From the IMG/VR virus record IMGVR_UViG_3300013936_000014: a stretch of DNA of 64,000 nt, one strand, 5' to 3'. Shown in pieces: positions 4,566-57,533 of the stretch. Position numbers and translations under genes: made by a program. Below the pieces are notes generated by a model that was not told the origin of the DNA, searched no databases, and saw nothing but the letters and a program-made list of their open reading frames with translations. This DNA comes from a virus (taxonomy: Duplodnaviria > Caudoviricetes). Position 1 is the stretch's first letter, and each line of letters begins with the position of its first letter.

Positions 4566-5414
4566 CTAATTTATTTTCTGAAGATTATACACATTGAAGA
4601 ATTTCTTGAACTTTTTGATGGATATATAATTATTATACGGAAGTTTTATATAAATTCGGCATTTCAGCCATTTCGATTTATGCTGATACGTGTTTCCGTC
4701 AAAATTAACATTCCAGCAAGGCGTTTTCTCCAGTTTCTTATCTTTCTGTATCTTCACCAGAACATCTATTTCTTTTTCGGGAATTATGCGCCCTTTTTCG
4801 CCTGGATTGCATATATCATTGCCCGAGTTTTCAAAAATATGCTTTCCCATAGCCAAAGCATTTAGTATTTCTAATTCGCCAATACCTCTGCCATCCATGA
4901 TATTTTTATAGTCGCCCGGAAGAGAAAAAGAGCAAATCGAAACGGAGCTGAGCTTCGTGACGTCCATCGCGTCAATCCCTTTGCCTATAAGATCAGAGAT
5001 CCCATTGTTATTCAGCTTGTCTAAGGTAAAAGAATATCGTGACGTCTCGATGTCAGCCCATCTTTGCTTGCGTTTATAGTCCGCTTCGATAGACGCTATC
5101 AACCCCTTAAGGCACTTTTCCGCTTTTTCTTTCGTGAGAGCATAGGCATATGCCTCTCCCCAGATCCTTGTCTTGATATTGTTTCTATTAAGATCTTTCC
5201 GAATGAGCTTTAGCCATTCCTCACAAACTTCTTTCTCGTCGACATCCCAAAGCATCATGTTGTTGTCGCTCTGGCTTTTAGGCGTTCCCAAAATAATGTA
5301 TTCCTTGATTTTCCCCACATATTCTTTAGGTGTCCCGCTAACATATTCGGCGTAGATTGAATATAATTTTTTGCCCGCCATTTCATTTATAGTTTTATCG
5401 TCTTTTAATCTCAT
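4566..5414 (-). CDS. hypothetical protein (moron-like: own promoter and terminator)
   Basis: Open frame; ATG 5414 follows GGAGG; upstream TTGCAT-N18-TATATT at 5444-5473; no recognisable motif. Confidence 0.6.
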   Translation of the reverse strand: MRLKDDKTINEMAGKKLYSIYAEYVSGTPKEYVGKIKEYIILGTPKSQSDNNMMLWDVDEKEVCEEWLKLIRKDLNRNNIKTRIWGEAYAYALTKEKAEKCLKGLIASIEADYKRKQRWADIETSRYSFTLDKLNNNGISDLIGKGIDAMDVTKLSSVSICSFSLPGDYKNIMDGRGIGELEILNALAMGKHIFENSGNDICNPGEKGRIIPEKEIDVLVKIQKDKKLEKTPCWNVNFDGNTYQHKSKWLKCRIYIKLPYNNYISIKKFKKFFNVYNLQKIN

Positions 5415-5591
5415 ATCAATCTCCTCCATTATTTTTCAAAAATAATATACCAAAATGCTTAAATAAAATGCAAGTTTTATTTTTTCACACAGCCGCGCTT
5501 TTGAATCAATTCTTTCCGAAGCCAACAAATTTAGACTTTCAGACAAAGAGCCATGGCAGGAAACGAAAAAATTCATTCAGAAATGCGATTC

Positions 5592-5624
5592 AATAATTTC
5601 ATAATAATTTCATAATAATTTCAT
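5592..5624. repeat. 3 x 11-bp tandem repeat AATAATTTCAT
   Basis: Read directly; ends about 30 bp before the outermost shufflon crossover site. Confidence 0.85.
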
Positions 5625-5655
5625 AAAACCAAACAGAATACTGCGATTCTAATGG

Positions 5656-6384
5656 TCATTTACTCCATTCCAGTGGCAGATGACCTCTATTATCCATGAA
5701 CACGAAATTTACAACAGCGACTTCCTCACGGACTTTGACTATACCTATGAAATGAACGGCGATCGCCTTTCCACAGTGAGCGGCGTCGGCATCAGCGGCG
5801 ATGGAGGCGACCCAACCTCTCCCGATTTTTATAGCTCGGGGATATGTCATTCTTTTACAGAAGATCCATATATCCTAAAGGTTATGGATGTCTCGGCTTT
5901 TCGGACAAACCCAACGAATCCTATCTCATTAATCGAATACCCCAATTCAGGACGTACTCTTGACGAGGGGATCAGTCCTTTAGGTTCTTTACAAACGTAT
6001 GACAGTTTTGATGAGTATTTTTACAAATACGACGTGCAGAGGAGCGTTCTGAGGGCGGAATTCACAGTAGTCAATTCAGCGGCGCAAGAGACCGAAGTTT
6101 ACAGTGTTTTTCTGCTGGCATTCACTTTCGGCGACATCAGGCGCACGGCAGCGGAGACGAACACCAAGGAAATTGCATATGATGGTTTGTATGCCTCAAT
6201 GATAGGCGCCATCGTCCTCCCTCACAAATTCTCGCAAAGCACCGAGACGGGGGAGAATGCTTCCGTGTTATTTGATGAGAATTCGGTGAAATTCGATGGG
6301 ACGGAGTATAAGACAGACAGCACCTCCGCAAAAAGGGTGAAATTCTACAAAGTGTTCCCATTCTATGACCAATCCCTGAAATAA
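5656..6384 (+). CDS. silent variable C-terminal cassette C of shufflon
   Basis: Frame opens immediately after ATACTGCGATTCTAATG|GT (an in-frame TAA lies just upstream of the core); no RBS; sequence unrelated to the other three cassettes. Confidence 0.7.
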   Translation, partial: SFTPFQWQMTSIIHEHEIYNSDFLTDFDYTYEMNGDRLSTVSGVGISGDGGDPTSPDFYSSGICHSFTEDPYILKVMDVSAFRTNPTNPISLIEYPNSGRTLDEGISPLGSLQTYDSFDEYFYKYDVQRSVLRAEFTVVNSAAQETEVYSVFLLAFTFGDIRRTAAETNTKEIAYDGLYASMIGAIVLPHKFSQSTETGENASVLFDENSVKFDGTEYKTDSTSAKRVKFYKVFPFYDQSLK

Positions 6385-6428
6385 TGCTAAGCGATTTCGT
6401 AGGTTTGACGGAATGCTGGGTGAAATGC

Positions 6429-6902
6429 TTAGAAAAAGAACACAAGGCTGTCTTTGTCGCACGAAACCCATGAAGTGCCGTTGAAATAATAACTGGAGGA
6501 GTATTCTTTGCTCTTGACAATCCTCGTGGTTCCATTGAAAGTGATCTGTTTTTCCACAATGTCGTAAACGGCTATCGCAGGATAATATCTGGTCCGAAGG
6601 ATCTCGCCGGTTTGTGTGGTCATTTGTTCGCTTCTGTAACCGATGACCGTGCTTCCTCCCACGCTGCTTGGTCCGTCTTTAATTGCGTACCAGCTGATCG
6701 GGTAATTTTGAAGAAGGGTGTCGACACGTCCGACTATGGGGTCATTAATATATATATGCCCTTGAGCCCCTACCTTTAGATAAATGTCGTTCCTCCCTTC
6801 ATCTTCGTCGTCAGCCAAAATGCTGATATTCACGGTACTATTGAGACGAATGCTCCCGCTCGCAACGTTCCACACCTCGTCGTTGCTGTTCAATTCAATC
6901 GA
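6429..6902 (-). CDS. silent variable C-terminal cassette A of shufflon
   Basis: Follows TTACTGCGGTTCCAACG|GT; shares the LLQNYPISWYAIKDGP motif with cassettes B and D; no RBS/ATG. Confidence 0.8.
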   Translation of the reverse strand, partial: SIELNSNDEVWNVASGSIRLNSTVNISILADDEDEGRNDIYLKVGAQGHIYINDPIVGRVDTLLQNYPISWYAIKDGPSSVGGSTVIGYRSEQMTTQTGEILRTRYYPAIAVYDIVEKQITFNGTTRIVKSKEYSSSYYFNGTSWVSCDKDSLVFFF

Positions 6903-6956
6903 CCGTTGGAACCGCAGTAAAAAAACGAGGCCCACAAGAGCCTCGTTTTTTTATCC
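6902..6956. repeat. 55-bp inverted repeat, left copy (crossover arm plus bidirectional terminator)
   Basis: 54/55 identical to the reverse complement of 7626-7680; contains A7-CGAGGC-loop-GCCTCG-T7. Confidence 0.95.
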
Positions 6957-7016
6957 CCCTTTACTTGTTTCCTTTTTTTTGATATCATGATGCTAACAAA
7001 AAGAAAGGAGCCGCAT

Positions 7017-7631
7017 ATGAACTACGGTTACATCAGGGTGAGCACAGATAAGCAGACAGTCGAGAACCAGCGCTTCGAGGTGGAAAGATTCTGCAGAGAT
7101 AAAAGCATGTCCATCGATCGGTGGATAGAAGAGACGGAATCCGGGGCTATCCCCGTCGAAAAAAGGAAGCTTGGATCCTTCATGAAGAAACTCCAAAAAG
7201 GGGACATCCTCATCTGCACGGAGCTCTCCCGGCTCGGCCGCTCTCTCTTCATGGTTATGACCCTGCTTGACGGGTGCTTGAAAAAGGGCGTCGAGGTGTG
7301 GACCACAAAAGAGGGGTATCGGCTTGGCGACAACATGAGCTCAAAAGTGATGGCATTCGCTTTCGGTCTTGCCGCCGAGATTGAGAGAAACCTGATCTCG
7401 CAACGCACGAAAGAGGCGCTGGCCGCGCGACGCGCGGCGGGGGTGCGGCTCGGGAGGCGAGAGGGCTCGAAAAACAGGGCTTACAAGCTTGACAAGCATA
7501 AAGATTACATAATGAAAAAACTATCGGAGGGCAAATCGAATTACTACATCTCAAAACATCTCCATGCGAAATACAGCACGGTCGTCGATTATGTGAAAAG
7601 ACTGAAGAAATCGTCGCAGACAAACGGATAA
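7017..7631 (+). CDS. serine recombinase / DNA invertase (Mpi-like)
   Basis: YGYIRVSTDKQ catalytic Ser motif, ELSRLGR, AEIERNLISQRTKEAL, LGR, C-terminal HTH; AAGGAG RBS before ATG 7017. Confidence 0.95.
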   Translation: MNYGYIRVSTDKQTVENQRFEVERFCRDKSMSIDRWIEETESGAIPVEKRKLGSFMKKLQKGDILICTELSRLGRSLFMVMTLLDGCLKKGVEVWTTKEGYRLGDNMSSKVMAFAFGLAAEIERNLISQRTKEALAARRAAGVRLGRREGSKNRAYKLDKHKDYIMKKLSEGKSNYYISKHLHAKYSTVVDYVKRLKKSSQTNG

Positions 7632-7680
7632 AAAAACGAGGCTCTTGCGGGCCTCGTTTTTTTACTGCGGTTCCAACGGT
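7626..7680. repeat. 55-bp inverted repeat, right copy (bidirectional terminator plus crossover arm)
   Basis: Reverse complement of 6902-6956 with one mismatch, in the hairpin loop. Confidence 0.95.
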
Positions 7681-8285
7681 TGTCTTATCCGACGGAGTGG
7701 AAAGATGTGGATGGCAGACCGTCGATAACATTATACTCTCAAAGCGGCATTATTGAACAAACCTGGAAGGTCGATACTTCATTCGATATTTCGAGTAGCG
7801 ATGAGGAGAAATCGGTTGATTGTTATGCGGATATGGACGTATCGGCCACGGATCACGGCGATGCGGGCGTTATGTTGGAATCCTATACTACGGTATCTCC
7901 CTCTTCCGGGGCTGAAACGACATATGCGGCCCGTCTTCTTCTTGATTCCGCCCTCGACGATGCGACCATCAGGGTGCAAGACAAAAACACGTCCTATAGC
8001 TTAGTCGATCTCGCCAACTATCCGATCAATTACTCGGCATTGAAAGGGGCCCCGAATCCTTCTACATATAGCCAAATCGGAATTTACACCAAAGGATATG
8101 GGAGCGGACAGAACAGAGGGAGTATTAATTCTATTGCGTTTCATTATGTAGACAAAAATACTGCATTGAACGACATAAATAATGAAAAATGGTTTTACGT
8201 CAACTCTTCAGGAACGCTGACTTCTTTCACCCCAAATTTAAACAACGAAACATTTACCCCGTTGAAAATATTGACAACGAACTGA
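7680..8285 (+). CDS. silent variable C-terminal cassette B of shufflon
   Basis: Follows TTACTGCGGTTCCAACG|GT in the same frame as A; LANYPINYSALKGAP motif; no RBS. Confidence 0.8.
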   Translation: MSYPTEWKDVDGRPSITLYSQSGIIEQTWKVDTSFDISSSDEEKSVDCYADMDVSATDHGDAGVMLESYTTVSPSSGAETTYAARLLLDSALDDATIRVQDKNTSYSLVDLANYPINYSALKGAPNPSTYSQIGIYTKGYGSGQNRGSINSIAFHYVDKNTALNDINNEKWFYVNSSGTLTSFTPNLNNETFTPLKILTTN

Positions 8286-8443
8286 ACCAATTCTGTTTTT
8301 GGCAATAAGCGTAAATTCAGAGGCACGCATCGTAAAAAAACAAAACTCGAATCAAAGAGATGAGGCAACGAACCAAGATAAACATCTGTTGCCGTTTGCG
8401 AGTTTAGCGCAACGATTCAACAACCGATGACATCTTATGAAAG

Positions 8444-9043
8444 TCAGAACCTTATCTTTTCTTTGAATGTATCCGAATCCGTGACAGCAAACTCTTCCCA
8501 AGCCCGGTCTTTGATATTATAACGAAAATAATATCTCTTAGAAGAAGAGCCTCTCAAATTATATAATGCCGAGAATCCGATAGTATAGCAGTCCGCTTGC
8601 GCGCCTGAATCATAATAATAGCATAAACCAAATTTTACAGAAGAAACACTTGAAGTCGAAGCATTCGTGGGCACCCACAAAGGAGTGCTCTCGGCGACAG
8701 CAAGAACTTTGTCTCCCGAGTCATCCGTTTTCAAATCAAGGGGTTTGCCGGCTATGGCGCTCCAGTTGATTGGATAATTTTTTAGCAATATGGAGTCGTT
8801 GCCGCCGCTATAATCATCGTGGACCCAGATGTCGTGATCATCCAACTTAATGGTTGTGTTTGGAACGTCAGAACTCCCGACAGACAAAGTTATGGTTTCT
8901 TCGGAATCTTGGTGCCACTCCCACTGAGCGTGCACGGCATGGTCGCTAACAATCGACGGTTTATTTTGTACTACGGACCAATCGGTCTCCGGATGAAGGA
9001 CATTGCCGCTGGCGTCCTTCAATCTAACTTTAATAGTTGACAT
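8444..9043 (-). CDS. expressed shufflon gene: 29-aa constant N-terminus + cassette D; probable receptor-binding/tail-fibre accessory protein
   Basis: AGGAGG RBS and ATG. MSTIKVRLKDASGNVLHPETDWSVVQNKP is a fibre-type N-terminus (LHPET, WxxVxNKP); LLKNYPINWSAIAGKP motif shared with A and B. Confidence 0.8.
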   Translation of the reverse strand: MSTIKVRLKDASGNVLHPETDWSVVQNKPSIVSDHAVHAQWEWHQDSEETITLSVGSSDVPNTTIKLDDHDIWVHDDYSGGNDSILLKNYPINWSAIAGKPLDLKTDDSGDKVLAVAESTPLWVPTNASTSSVSSVKFGLCYYYDSGAQADCYTIGFSALYNLRGSSSKRYYFRYNIKDRAWEEFAVTDSDTFKEKIRF

Positions 9044-9100
9044 ATTTTTCCTCCTTATAAGATTCCAAGGAATAAAATCCTCATTTTATTCCTCAATAAT

Positions 9101-9129
9101 AATATACAAAATCGCGATAGAAATATCAA
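9101..9129 (-). promoter_or_regulatory. sigmaA-like promoter of the shufflon expression gene
   Basis: TTGATA-N17-TATATT, followed by an 11-bp perfect 5'-UTR hairpin at 9068-9093. Confidence 0.6.
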
Positions 9130-9170
9130 TGTTTTTCTCATCGTAATTTTGTTTTTGTTTTTGTTTTTGC

Positions 9171-9365
9171 CTATTCTATTTCTTCATAGGTCAAGGTTTT
9201 ATTAGCCGCATCGATAAATTTATTCATCAAAACGGTAAACTGGCTCTTGAAATCTTCAAAATCCTTTTTCGAAGCAAATTCGCTTTCGAGAGCCCCCAAA
9301 GCGGCAATGGCCGCATCGAGTTGGTCGCCACTGTATTTGCTGACGTAGACTTTACTCTCTGCCAT
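9171..9365 (-). CDS. small tail-associated protein
   Basis: AGGAGG RBS; YVSKYSGDQLDAAI resembles the YxSKYxGxxID motif seen at phage fibre/baseplate N-termini. Confidence 0.55.
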   Translation of the reverse strand: MAESKVYVSKYSGDQLDAAIAALGALESEFASKKDFEDFKSQFTVLMNKFIDAANKTLTYEEIE

Positions 9366-9385
9366 AGATATTCCTCCTTATAAAA

Positions 9386-10645
9386 TCAACGAGTGATGAA
9401 GGGGATGTTGTCCAGACTCGTCAATGAAAGACTCATAGTCCCCGAATAATCCAGAGAACAAGAAACACTCTGAATCAGATATCGTTTCGACGTCATTCCG
9501 AAGAAGGAGTCGGTCACCGAAACCAGATTATTGACTGTCAACAACGGATTAAATGCCACATTAAAGGAAACAGAGCTTTTCATCATGAGCACTTTTCTCA
9601 GTTCATAATCGGCTCTCTCTTTCGCCAAAGAGTTGGAGGTGATGTTCGGATCGTTTATCACGGACCCCATATGATATCCTATTCTCTGATGGCATAAAGG
9701 TGATTTCGGGTCATCATTGACCGCCGTTGCCTTATATACCACAGAGGAAGAAGAATTCGAAGAGCCAGTCACGATAACCTTATTCACGATCGAAGAAAAA
9801 TCAAGATCAAAGCTCAGAGAGTCAAAATCGCCTTTTTCTGCTGTTACATAACATAATAAGGGCTTATCTCCGTCGCTTGTGGTTTCCGATGTCGGGATAA
9901 AAGTCAAGTTTCCCTGCGAATTATAAAAAACTTCCGAAGATAATTGCGTTCCCAGTTCCAAAAGAATGCTCCCGTAGGTATCACCCGAGCTTTTTGAGAT
10001 GCTTGATTGAACGGTTTTATTTTTAAATGTGGCATTATAGATAATTGGGCGAGAATCAAAAGGATATCCGTTACCTGGATCCATGACAAGAATCCCATTA
10101 ATGATATCCTCGATTTCTGACCCGGTGGATATTTCCGTTGTGTCGTCAAGGACGCCCATCTTCCCCTCGAACAATCCGAATTTATCTCCGGCGGTTATGT
10201 TTGTTATTTTATTGCCGCTATTGTCTTCCGAGCAGGTTGCTTTCGTTATAACGAATATTCCTTTTTCAACCCAAATAGTGACTCCAAAATCGTTTTGAAC
10301 GCCAAGATCGAAACGCAGTCTCGTCCCCTCCCATAGTTTATTTATCCCGACAAGATATTTTCCGTCAGAATTGACCAAGGAGAAGCTTAAGCTTCTCCTT
10401 TGCCCATCCTGATAATTCTCACTATAAGATCCGCCTGTTTGAATATCTTCATTCGGAATCTCGTAATTTATAGTCTCGTCTGGATAAAGAACATATATCC
10501 TATATCTGGGTTTGATGTTAGGTTTTTGGATATCTTCCAGTATCTGAGAGGCCGACGAGGCTGAAGACATGTTGAATTCGGTTTCCCCTTCTCTTTCAAC
10601 GGATATCACGTCTCCACTGGCGAGGTTGATCATAAGGTTATTCAT
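9386..10645 (-). CDS. baseplate hub / tail-tip protein
   Basis: RRSLSFSL, GIFVIT, FYNSQGNL, NKVIVTG, AKERADYEL, FNPLLTVNNLV pattern of siphovirus tail-tip proteins; ATG 10645 with GGAGG RBS overlaps the upstream stop. Confidence 0.65.
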   Translation of the reverse strand: MNNLMINLASGDVISVEREGETEFNMSSASSASQILEDIQKPNIKPRYRIYVLYPDETINYEIPNEDIQTGGSYSENYQDGQRRSLSFSLVNSDGKYLVGINKLWEGTRLRFDLGVQNDFGVTIWVEKGIFVITKATCSEDNSGNKITNITAGDKFGLFEGKMGVLDDTTEISTGSEIEDIINGILVMDPGNGYPFDSRPIIYNATFKNKTVQSSISKSSGDTYGSILLELGTQLSSEVFYNSQGNLTFIPTSETTSDGDKPLLCYVTAEKGDFDSLSFDLDFSSIVNKVIVTGSSNSSSSVVYKATAVNDDPKSPLCHQRIGYHMGSVINDPNITSNSLAKERADYELRKVLMMKSSVSFNVAFNPLLTVNNLVSVTDSFFGMTSKRYLIQSVSCSLDYSGTMSLSLTSLDNIPFITR

Positions 10646-13600
10646 AATCCGTATCCTCCTCCCACTCATTCGAACATTTGTCCCCAAAAGATTCGTCTTC
10701 ATTCATCGAATATATGATGGCGTCATCCGCGCTTGCTATTTGCTTCCATGAAAAACTGACAGTATCGGGGAGCGTCGCTGTGACTTCATTGGTTGTGGTG
10801 GTATTGTCCATTATCTGCACAATCCAACTTTGCCCCTTGATATCTCTCAAAAGCTTTGGCGTTCCGGTAGCAACAAATTTTCTCCATTCTCCAACCATAT
10901 AAGCTTTTTCGTTGGTGGACATAGGCGAGATTTTGGAAGAAGGGGTTCTTTCTGTATAACCGCTCCCCAACAAAGGTATTATTTCGCTGCCGATATAACA
11001 TGAAATGGATCCGCTCAGATAATTCTTCCTGCCAATCCCCACTTTGGCATATTGACCGAGGGTGCTGTATTCGTTTTTCGCCAGATTCTGGGAAAGAGAC
11101 CCGCTCTCTACCTGATATTTAAACAGCCAAATATTTTCCGGATCTGCAATATATTCGTCATAATCGGAACTCATGGAAGAGTTCTCCGAAGTCGAAATAA
11201 GATTGGTAAGGCTCCAGTATTGGAAATTGATCTTCACTGGCTTAGAGAGGTAACCATAATAATCCCTCCAATGCTTTTCCTTATCTTTTTCTATGAGTCT
11301 TGACGGTTCGTAGAATTTATCCACCTCTTCGTATTTCTCGGTATTAGCATATATGTATGGTATTTTACTCGCTTGAGCCGAATAGTTTCCTGGGAATATG
11401 ACATATTGATAAGAATGCCCATTCTTTATATTGAAATCCGATATCCTCACAATCTCATCTTTGTCTTTTACTTTTACGTTGATGATAACTGGGGACCATT
11501 TGTCTCCGATAAATGTCTTTTTTTGCTTTTTGCCCCTCTCGTCGTATCGGAAGAATCTCTTATATTCTCTTCTAAAAATGGAAAAGCTCCTCAAATAATC
11601 GTATTCAGAATCTTCCGAAGGCGCCCCGTTCTGCTTTATGAATTTAGGATATACGGTCAAATCAACCCTCTCGCCTTCGCAATTGGCTTTCGCACCAAAT
11701 CCTTCGATGCAGTATGTAAAATCCCTTGAAGGCGTCACATATTGAAGCAATTTCCTTTCTTTCACGTCTCTGCCGTTCTCATCGACGACATATAAAGTGA
11801 TAAGATATATATTCGAAGAGTAAGAAACCTCTTTTGTCCCAGGTGTTTCAGATTCTTCTCCGTCTTCTTCTGCGCTGTCTAACAAGCCATAAAACAAGAC
11901 AGACATATTCTTGTCGTATTTTATCCCCGTGTCTTTGATAACCCGAGTCTCCGCGATATGCTCAAGCGGATCGGGACTGCCCGCTTCTATAAGGCTGGAA
12001 AGCTCTTCCGCAGTGTAAAAGTCGTCGAATTTCACTTTTTCCAACACCCACCGATAAGACTCCCAAGACCCCCCGTTCCATTGCCGATAAAGACCGCTTA
12101 GCGGCAGCTTGTACCCCGAAGTGGAATCAGTCGAAAGATTTAGCACATGGTAAACCGTTTGATCTTTGGAGGCTTCGTTCGTGTATAGCTTCGCAGCTGC
12201 TTTTATGATGCATTCTGGCATCTTAAGGGTTTTTAGCCCCGTTTCGCCGTTGCCTAGGGCCATTTTTTGCGCATCGCCATATACACTCTCTATTTTTTGA
12301 ATCATTTCGGCCCCTTTCTCTGCATTTGACAACGTGCTTTTTTCGAACCCGCAGGAGAGAGTCTCGGCCCCATTGGCGGGGTCCATAGACCAAACGGGTG
12401 TCCCAGTCTTGTCCGTCTTTCTTTTTGGAAAAACAAAATCGACCGAATAATCCTTGATGAGAGTAACGCCATCTGAAAAATTTTGCTCTTCTCCGACCAG
12501 CAAGTCAACGAAGGAAAGCTTTTCAAAAGCTTCCCTCCACGTGCCGTTAAACAGATTTCCCGAATAGAATAAGCTGTATTCTGCGGCCTCTTCATCAAGC
12601 GACCCGCTGTCGTTTGTGGGGTAGGCGAACAAAGTCAAATAATCATTCTCATCCGTATATCCATCATCAAGTCTCTTGTTGATAATGAGATAAGGGTCTT
12701 CCCTGAAATAAAACGGGTTCTCGTCGCTTTTTTTGTAAAAGCTGCATATTTTATAATGATAAGGCTCTTTTGTGTTGTTGGAATAACTACGGAAAGGGGT
12801 TTTCAACTCCTCGTGATCGACTTTCCATACGACCCTGTTCACCTTATCGAATTTCAAATAATTAAAAGACTCAGAGCCCCCCTTGTATTGAACGACTTTG
12901 TCGTCGAATTTTATCGCCATCCCAAGATCAAGGCCAGAGTAAGCACCGATATAAGTGGACGTCGTTGTGTTTTTCAGCACCTCTGCTCTGCACAGGTCTT
13001 TTGAGTCTTTGATTAGATCCAAAACGGAGCCCGATTTGCCTATCCTGCAGACTCCCAAACCGTTTTTTTCCCCTTGATTGACATAATAGTAGGAATAGTC
13101 TTGCCCCGGCTCTTTCACTTTTTCCCCAGGGTCGCCCTTCGACGAATATTTGTAAACGGCGCCGTCGTTTTCGTTAATATAATAGTCGCCCAACGATAAA
13201 ATGACCCCATCAACATAATCGGCATCGTTTTTTGTCTCAAACGCGCCCAGAGCTTTTATGGAATAATCGTCGTTAAGCAGCTGCGGGAAGAGAACGACCG
13301 CCCTTTCCGGAACAAAATAAAGCGGGCTGCTTCCATCGGAGCTCGTCCCTTCTGTCGTTTGCGCGCCATATGGCTTTTTCAGCAATGTTCCTCCTGCGGT
13401 TGCAGTCGAGGAGAAATTCCTATTTCCGTTAACCTCGCCATTTTGCACAAAAATAATCTTTCCTATGTAATTAGACCATTCCGTGTAGCCACCTGCGCGC
13501 GTCCACGTCGCCATTTTCGCCGACGTGATCGGGAAATTGCCAGTTTCTGAGGCTGTTTCTTCCGATTCTTTCGTCTCCGCGTTGTAATAAGGCGGATACA

Positions 13601-56256: not shown

Positions 56257-57405
56257 TCAATCCGCGACATCGTTGCCCGCGTCGTCTATCTTCGTGTAGA
56301 ATACGCCATTCACGGATTCGAACATTGTTTTTATCGGCACGTTCGTATAAAGAATCTTCTTCGTCTCCTTGTCATACTCGACCTTTGTGGTGAGGCCGTT
56401 TTTCTGATCATAGCTCCCTTCGGCAAGAGCGGCCCCCTCCACGTTGCCGATATCACCTTTGGGGCCTTGAGGCCCTTTAAGGCTGGCGATTTTCGTCCAT
56501 TCTTTCGACTCGTTGTATCTATATACCTCGCCTTTTTCCTCATTGAGGTAAAAATCCCCTATTTTGACCCCTTCGGGAGACGGATCGACGGAGACTTGCC
56601 CTTGGTCGGTTCCCACGTCGTTGCCGGAGAACCATGTGCTGCCCGTTGGGCCTATTGGCCCCGTTGGGCCGACCACGCCTGTTGGCCCTAAAGCCCCTGT
56701 GGGGCCGGTGGGACCCGTAAGACCGATTGGGCCCGTAGGCCCTACTGGGCCTATCAGCCCTTGGACCCCCGTGGGACCCATTGGGCCGGTGGGACCTGTA
56801 AGGCCGATTGGACCGGTAGGGCCGATAAGCCCAGTGGGACCCAAAGCCCCTGTGGGGCCGGTGGGACCCGTGAGGCCTATAGGCCCCGTTGGTCCCATCA
56901 CCCCTGTGGGGCCTATTTGGCCAGTTGGGCCGATTGGGCCCGTGGCTCCGGTGGGGCCGATGTCCCCCTGCGGGCCGGTGGGGCCGATGTCCCCTTGATC
57001 GCCCTTCGCCCCAGTTTCGCCTTGGGGTCCCTGAGAGCCCCTCTCCCCTTTTGAGGAAGATCCAGAGCCCCCCGTTTCCCCCATTTCCGTCTCCAGTTGC
57101 TCCAACTGCTCCCTCAGATCAAGGTTGCTTCCGATTTTGGCGAAAATGAACGACTGCGCGAATTGGTTTCCCACTTTGTAGACATAGACGTAATCCCCAG
57201 TCTCCAGGTCGAATCCGAACTTGTTCGGAATGCCATGGATGACATTGGCATCGTCGGGCACCACGTAAATGTTGTAATTGCCGTCGCTTCCGGGGGATGC
57301 GATCTGGCATAGCGCTACTTGATCCTTTGAATCGAGTTGCTGTTTTATCAACTCTTTTATGAGATCAAGCATCGATTTGGCTGACTTTTCATTGTTGTTG
57401 CTCAT
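56257..57405 (-). CDS. collagen-like fibre/spike protein 1 with N-terminal OB-fold-like domain
   Basis: [11 protein letters not shown] spike-like N-terminus; long GPTG repeat; GSTWFSG...GDFYLN. Confidence 0.85.
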
Positions 57406-57533
57406 GATGCTCCCTCCGTCGGTTGTGTTGACCGTCGAAATCACGACGGAAAAAAAGGAAAGGGTATCACCCTTTCCCAGAATCGACAGTCTCCTGTCTC
57501 AGCGGCGCTTGAATAAAAGCGCGTTTTTATTCA

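Follow-up and report, generated by a model that had tools for sequence, protein, structure and literature searches.

In the fibre switch of p15B, as in the simpler systems of Mu (Gin), P1 (Cin) and e14 (Pin), a small serine invertase is encoded by the phage itself; Min of p15B acts on several crossover sites lying in both orientations, the gene having a single constant 5' part and alternative 3' fibre cassettes that lack promoters and are placed tail to tail (PMC6109161 and general background). Multi-cassette switching of the C-terminal part of a receptor-binding protein, behind one constant part, is also described for Rin of Bifidobacterium prophages (PMC6109161), BV01-like phages (PMC13596623) and PilV of R64, with variants both between genomes and within viromes. 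Mpi of Bacteroides fragilis flips dispersed promoter segments in trans across the bacterial chromosome (PMC4747536), and Milman et al. found Mpi-family recombinases among the annotations most enriched beside the target genes of programmed inversions, and phage tail fibre genes among the most enriched targets (PMC9881135). Here we describe a locus that resembles p15B Min in each of these respects of layout, and whose invertase falls over its full length into the same NCBIfam equivalog family as Mpi. It occupies positions 5638-9043 of a 64 kb window, the whole stretch of DNA analysed, from IMG/VR record IMGVR_UViG_3300013936_000014. The source is a large, uncultured phage of ~140 kb (contigs of close relatives span 137-140 kb), and the locus is very probably an active multiple-inversion switch, or shufflon, acting on a small tail-fibre gene.

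The locus contains one small fibre gene that bears a start, three start-less cassettes (A, B and C) and a serine invertase gene, and all features named in the original prediction were found in the sequence (Table 1). The 199-amino-acid (aa) fibre gene, in which 29 constant codons run into a fourth cassette, D, is the last gene of a tail module on the minus strand of the window. Leftward from it follow cassette B (plus), the invertase (plus), cassette A (minus) and cassette C (plus), giving two tail-to-tail cassette pairs, C/A and B/D, with the invertase gene between the pairs. The fibre gene had been noted as the sole one with a promoter, a ribosome-binding site (RBS) and an ATG, and indeed a promoter-like site matching at 10 of 12 positions and an AAGGAGG RBS precede its ATG at 9043, while no Shine-Dalgarno sequence was found before any in-frame start of cassettes A, B or C. 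Each cassette follows a related G|T site, as had been noted, and its reading frame is open from the base after G|T to its own stop; a TAA at 5650-5652 shuts the frame just before cassette C. The four cassette proteins are 16-24% identical to one another in pairwise comparison, and A, B and D have in common the motif NYPI(S/N)(W/Y)xA(I/L)xxxP that had already been picked out.

Alternative junctions had been set beforehand as what to look for, and we sought them in independent assemblies, namely 13 contigs from ENA (ERZ268581xx-ERZ268591xx) and Logan (SRR298344xx), retrieved by exact-protein look-up of the invertase and of the 64-aa neighbour of the fibre gene, and 97-99% identical to the window. 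The constant part is joined there to cassette C in L083, L084, L086, L087, L088 and L090 (271-aa product, 94-95% identical to C), to A in L089 (186 aa, 93% identical), to B in L092, L094 and L095, to a B-like variant, B', in L093, and to a new cassette, E, in L091; in every alternative assembly the context changes at ..AAACCG|TC... Cassettes A, B and C were thereby recovered at the predicted base in other assemblies, and D in the window, as expected if the constant peptide can be fused to any of four C-termini. The constant part itself is 28-29/29 identical before cassettes C, A, E and an unrelated cassette (L083, L086-L091 and the related contig L096). Cassettes were also found in other slots: D lies silent at an invertase flank in L085, L086 and L087, the outer slot holds B or B' in L084, L086 and L087 (and C in others), and C lies at an invertase flank in L089. 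Some assemblies carry the B/D segment flipped, and L088 differs from L083 by inversion of the invertase module alone. Altogether, at least seven slot arrangements occur among these genomes, and the cassette pool over strains exceeds four (B', E and others).

From the arrangement of the window, each of the others is reached in one or two steps, every step being an inversion between sites of opposite orientation; we designate the sites const (expression site), invL and invR (flanks of the invertase module) and outer. Flipping the whole region between const and outer gives the L083 type, and inversion between invR and outer then gives the L086 type; L089 results from an additional const x invL inversion, L088 from an additional invL x invR inversion, and the fusion of the constant part to B from a const x invR inversion in the window. 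The proposed inversions D-B, D-C and C-A account for the arrangements once a fourth, A-B, is added (L088 versus L083). Since other assemblies of the same phage hold the predicted forms, we consider the switch to be real. One contig, L091, carries two tandem expression loci (5260-6359), each with a promoter-like region, an RBS and a 29-codon constant part, joined to E at 5323-5814 and to a B-like cassette from 5890, so that the expression site is itself duplicated.

These in-frame fusions bear on whether A, B and C could be ordinary genes with internal starts, their shared boundary being nothing but a conserved gene start. Gene callers do place open reading frames in them that begin at an internal ATG or TTG (for example 234 aa in C, 148-186 aa in A), but those starts have no RBS, terminators lie directly upstream of A and B, and the same cassettes are read in frame with the constant codons in other assemblies, which leaves this explanation hardly tenable.

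The contig end-points carry information on mixtures within samples. The SPAdes contigs L092-L094 end exactly 54 nucleotides (nt) beyond the junction and the Logan contig L095 29 nt beyond it, the points at which a de Bruijn graph (k=55 and k=31, respectively) would have to end if a cassette had several left neighbours in that sample; this is indirect evidence for mixed forms within one sample. By contrast, L086 and L087 (70-76 kb contigs) cross the whole region in one contig, and one arrangement can therefore dominate a sample. This last observation would suit a locus in which the arrangements are fixed strain differences left by rare past recombination, with the switch no longer operating at a biologically useful rate. 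We find that improbable, given at least seven slot arrangements among genomes 97-99% identical, an invertase that is intact and identical in four contigs, 55-nt repeats that are 98% identical, and several assemblies that break exactly k-1 bases past the junction.

Table 1. Positions of the features of the locus and of its tail-module neighbours in the window
Feature	Position	Strand	Remark
Junction const|D	8957/8956	minus	between G and T
Expression-site crossover const|D	8948..8965	minus	AATAAACC-GT-CGATTGTT; left half codes QNKP
Junction invR|B	7679/7680	plus	between G and T
Crossover invR|B	7671..7688	plus	TTCCAACG-GT-TGTCTTAT
Junction invL|A	6903/6902	minus	between G and T
Crossover invL|A	6894..6911	minus	TTCCAACG-GT-CGATTGAA; best dyad in window
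Junction outer|C	5655/5656	plus	between G and T
Crossover outer|C	5647..5664	plus	TTCTAATG-GT-CATTTACT; left boundary of invertible region
Serine invertase, 204 aa	7017..7631	plus	Mpi family
Promoter-like site of the invertase	6960-6988		
Left arm of 55-nt inverted repeat	6902..6956		hairpin terminator at 6918-6953
Right arm of 55-nt inverted repeat	7626..7680		hairpin terminator at 7629-7664
Promoter-like site of the fibre gene	9101..9129 (9129-9101)	minus	TTGATA-17-TATATT
Fibre gene, 199 aa	8444-9043	minus	constant part + cassette D
Constant part, 29 codons	8957..9043	minus	MSTIKVRLKDASGNVLHPETDWSVVQNKP; sole start-bearing segment
Cassette D, 170 codons + stop	8444..8956	minus	occupies expression slot in window
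Cassette B, 201 codons	7680..8285	plus	silent in window
Cassette A, 157 codons	6429..6902	minus	silent in window
Cassette C, 242 codons	5656..6384	plus	silent in window
Gene of 64 aa	9171-9365	minus	tail module, adjoins fibre gene
Tail protein, 438 aa	9386-10702	minus	tail module; matches DUF5048 and phrog_1887
Protein of 1707 aa	10638-15761	minus	tail module
Giant protein, 4211 aa	17819-30454	minus	tail module

The exchange point G|T falls on the same codon boundary at all four junctions. Two of the sites lie on the plus and two on the minus strand, one of them being the expression site and the cassettes being promoter-less, and all four are exactly as originally listed. The left halves of the three silent sites are conserved as TTCYAAYG and match the pattern TGCGRTTCYAAYGGT, which, allowing up to two mismatches, matches these three sites only in the window (shuffled controls: mean 0.83 matches, with three reached in 5/100). 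When 8-2-8 dyads were scored with both arms against TTC(A/C/T)A(A/T)CG, TTCCAACG-GT-CGATTGAA at invL|A reached 16/16, the sole such match in the window, which places the centre of the dyad symmetry on GT; a perfect dyad of this type is also present once in L086 and twice in L096. GT is moreover the sole dinucleotide common to all four sites at the exchange point. The junctions in the other assemblies confine the exchange to the three bases G-T-C, and TC is therefore, strictly, also a candidate. The sites had been called very degenerate, but weakness is limited to the left half that is coding, AATAAACC, and to the right halves at cassettes B and C; the silent left halves are conserved, and the best sites are near-perfect dyads. 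The first codons of a cassette lie in the right half of its site, where CGATTGAA or CGATTGTT specifies S-I-E or S-I-V. The sites, of the form TTCYAAYG-GT-CGATTGAA, do not match the gix/hix-type 26-base-pair (bp) sites (..AAACC-NN-GGTTT..), and the resemblance to AAACC is confined to the coding left half.

Three further observations concern the sites and their surroundings. In L085, an 834-nt contig, the left half at the invertase flank is TGCGATTCTAATGG, the sequence of the outer slot in the window, and not TGCGGTTCCAACGG; slots can therefore also exchange or convert sequence that lies to the left of the core. B-type cassettes open with a 14-residue unit, (L/S)SYPT(E/T)W..V.GRP, that repeats the constant motif (window 7680-7727; L091:5977-6060) and ends in a second site-like sequence, CAGACCG|TCG; its presence once or twice according to strain (P0041, P0046 and P0049 versus P0027 and P0037) suggests that exchange may also occur at this internal site. 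Finally, three tandem 11-nt repeats AATAATTTCAT lie at 5592-5626, ~20 nt left of the outer crossover site, at the non-coding boundary.

The invertase had been called Mpi-like, and it matches the NCBIfam model NF009949 ('master DNA invertase Mpi family') with 282.6 bits against a cut-off of 272, residues 1-200 aligning with model positions 1-200 of 203. It also matches Pfam Resolvase PF00239 (3.5e-34) and phrog_125 'DNA invertase' (1.7e-42). Its best relative of solved structure in the PDB is Gin, at E = 9e-12 over the catalytic domain only, with Ser9 in YIRVSTDKQ aligned to the Gin active-site serine. With NF009949 above its cut-off and Gin only a distant relative, the enzyme is therefore Mpi-like and outside the Gin/Min clade. 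Within the 64 kb window of the ~140 kb genome, good crossover sites were found only at the four local slots, which does not fit a 'master' role in trans on dispersed promoters. Repeats recognised by Mpi reportedly have the consensus ARACGTWCGT, with a ..AACG-NN-CG.. core like that of the sites here. Since the invertase gene is adjacent and intact, its product is the likely catalyst of the inversions. A site-like palindrome, GTCCATCG-AT-CGGTGGAT, lies at 7109-7126, ~100 nt inside the invertase gene, with a similar dyad at the matching relative position in L096 (~8690-8707); it could be an accessory or autoregulatory binding site. Invertase genes of the Gin/Hin clade have a Fis-bound enhancer within them.

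The invertase gene is flanked by a 55-nt inverted repeat whose arms are 98% complementary, and the A and B crossover sites are the inner ends of this repeat. Each arm holds a hairpin with a 14-bp stem flanked by A and T runs; with hairpins in both arms and a promoter-like site of its own, the invertase gene is thus a terminator-bounded module between two crossover sites. We propose that the Mpi-family invertase, encoded between the tail-to-tail cassette pairs, would recombine facing 18-bp sites in four slots: the expression slot, which has the promoter, the RBS and the constant codons, one slot on either side of the invertase module, and the outer, non-coding slot. Inversion between oppositely oriented slots would place another promoter-less cassette behind the constant codons, so that the product would combine the constant 29-residue N-terminus with one of at least four unrelated C-terminal bodies of 157-242 residues. 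The 55-nt repeats, each with a crossover site and a terminator hairpin, would let the invertase module flip, and their terminators probably keep the neighbouring silent cassettes untranscribed.

A protein search with the expressed fibre protein returned at least 154 metagenomic homologues, all of them unnamed and lacking Pfam domains, and nearly all of those retrieved or aligned carry a near-invariant N-terminus, M..(I/V)KVRLKD..GNVLHPETDWSVVQNKPS, on otherwise unrelated bodies of 137-271 aa. The model of the monomer is all-beta, with a predicted local distance difference test score (pLDDT) of 70.9. Modelled in three copies, the protein scores 0.71, against 0.00 for the best of three controls; in calibration, 20 of 30 proteins solved as one-chain pairs and 1 of 23 solved as single chains attained this mark, a calibration that is only rough here because the protein was run with a purpose-made alignment and in three copies. 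The homotrimer runs have at least 79% of contacts in common, with partner pLDDT of at least 74, and the confident contacts fall in residues 1-29 and 86-104, that is, in the constant part and the second conserved motif. The modelling thus supports, short of demonstrating, trimerisation, and is consistent with a trimeric fibre whose variable domains are held by conserved nodes.

The second conserved motif, YPINWSA, also marks a boundary between homologues. P0027, P0037, P0044 and P0054 form a clean 2x2 mosaic with exchange exactly at this motif, their proximal domains being 95-98% or 24-26% identical and their distal domains 96-97% or 17-19%, and L096 carries a stand-alone distal half-cassette beginning at the motif (7234-7539, plus strand). 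We considered YPINWSA as a programmed crossover site and rejected it, since the DNA is only ~19/24 identical between cassettes and has no GT-centred dyad; the mosaic probably reflects evolutionary module swapping, not programmed exchange.

We infer that the fibre is a trimeric receptor-binding protein docked to the tail by its constant 29 residues. Switching may then alter which hosts, or which host surface variants, the phage adsorbs to, by analogy with the inversion systems of Mu, P1 and p15B. The same analogy extends to Rin and BV01-like phages (PMC6109161, PMC13596623). Instead, the protein might be an accessory surface fibre or decoration, serving for example mucus or particle adhesion, with switching directed to some end other than host range. 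Its small size and mere 29-residue anchor would suit such a role, as would the lack of a fold match to any known receptor-binding head and the presence of other fibre-like genes in the window (for example 56257-57444, which matches several tail-fibre PHROGs). We nevertheless judge it unlikely: the gene is terminal in the tail module, the very high diversity of bodies fits an arms race and, to our knowledge, all inversion systems of this layout that have been characterised target the receptor-binding tips of fibres (Mu, P1, p15B). The remaining inversion systems of this layout have the same target (PMC6109161).

Several points weigh against an active switch of a host-recognition fibre. The left half of the expression site, AATAAACC, is the weakest half-site, at 5/8, and nothing in the locus explains how deletion between directly oriented sites is avoided. 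For switching within a single clone or sample, the evidence is that of the contig end-points and is indirect. The fibre protein belongs to no Pfam, PHROG or NCBIfam family, and in a Foldseek search of the PDB the monomer model had no match at E <= 0.001 (T4 gp34, which ranked first with E = 0.12, was not counted as evidence), so that the label of receptor-binding fibre draws on gene position, the trimer model and analogy. As for a host, no prophage copy of the fibre family turned up in a scan of 185,579 species genomes, and the phage is therefore not a common prophage. With its sites, its enzyme family, the exact junctions of natural recombinants and the conservation of its design all observed directly, we nonetheless retain the inversion switch as the reading of the locus.

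The conservation of this design is apparent in related contigs. In L003, a 107-kb IMG/VR contig with an invertase 64% identical and syntenic tail genes, an 18-nt inverted repeat, ATACAAAACAAACCATCG, is perfect; one arm falls on the same ..IQNKPS codons, here of a 120-aa fibre gene, and the other lies 1.5 kb away before a silent cassette, these two sites enclosing the invertase gene and two cassettes. In L096 (140 kb) sites and cassettes number five each, and the same invertase module flanked by terminators is present. More widely, 284 IMG/VR contigs encode invertase relatives 53-64% identical, several of them with whole-gene cassette arrays. Nine such IMG/VR loci (L032, L043, L050, L054, L055, L069, L070, L074 and L081), with Mpi-family invertases 53-57% identical, carry many inverted copies of TGCCCCTTAAATGT(A/G) downstream of the invertase, at positions ~7000-9800, each followed by a start codon (ATGGCAGAGAAGCA..), in a manner resembling whole-gene cassette shufflons. 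Among 80 IMG/VR invertase loci searched for WSxIxNKP, a part of the constant motif, it stands at the N-terminus of a fibre gene in L003 only, the one other match, in L038, being an internal fibre motif. A megablast search of 5000-10700 against cultured phages gave no match, neither the constant junction nor the invertase flank was found in IMG/VR by exact-pattern scanning, and exact look-up of the 287-aa neighbour (4569-5429) returned no record. In bacteria, relatives of the invertase come from many phyla and all show 54-61% identity, which offers no clue to the host. A crAss-like affiliation was rejected, as among cultured phages the 438-aa tail protein comes closest to those of Thomasclavelia (25% identity) and the RBSs are strong AGGAGG sequences. 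The left part of the window holds replication genes (DnaB, Sak4 and a YorF-like gene), and a gene elsewhere in the window that had earlier been proposed as TROVE/Ro60-like was confirmed only as phrog_850 'RNA-binding protein'.

More speculatively, and with considerable doubt, the locus may belong to a large undescribed class of Mpi-family-driven phage switches in animal-gut viromes, in which the fibre undergoes two-tier exchange, by inversion at QNKP|S and by module swapping at the trimer node YPINWSA, and a self-flipping, terminator-bounded invertase module regulates the switching rate. Whatever its distribution, the locus offers a clear, naturally validated case in which an Mpi-family invertase, of a type known elsewhere from the flipping of bacterial surface promoters, would drive a phage host-recognition switch, and it defines the crossover site of such an enzyme at base resolution. 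It suggests that a constant part of 29 residues, which presumably docks to the baseplate, suffices for a modular trimeric fibre, and a short anchor with swappable bodies could make a compact scaffold for phage engineering. For metagenomics, it accounts for the breakage of contigs of such phages at this locus.

Fibre shufflons with serine (Min) or tyrosine (Rin) invertases are already established, and it is against these that the locus has to be set. Unlike Min and Gin, the enzyme here is of the Mpi family, its sites are CG-GT-CG dyads where theirs are AAACC-NN-GGTTT, its gene is embedded in the invertible DNA between the cassette pairs and is itself flipped, no more than 29 codons form the constant part, and a co-inverted fibre-assembly gene is absent. 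Unlike Mpi of B. fragilis, it is encoded by a phage, acts on adjacent sites and swaps coding cassettes. The location of the invertase inside the invertible region, described as unusual in the original prediction, was confirmed but has a precedent in Salmonella Hin, whose gene likewise lies inside the segment it inverts. Hin differs in flipping a promoter between two sites, without coding cassettes, and in being an enzyme of Gin type that needs Fis and an enhancer. In Rin and R64 the recombinase is of the tyrosine type, the sites are short and asymmetric, and the recombinase gene is outside the cassettes; in the BV01-like shufflon the recombinase flanks a 1.7-kb cassette window (PMC13596623). 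The distinguishing features of this locus are its Mpi-family enzyme with CG-GT-CG sites, an embedded, self-flipping invertase module, a very short constant part and a large, unnamed fibre family.

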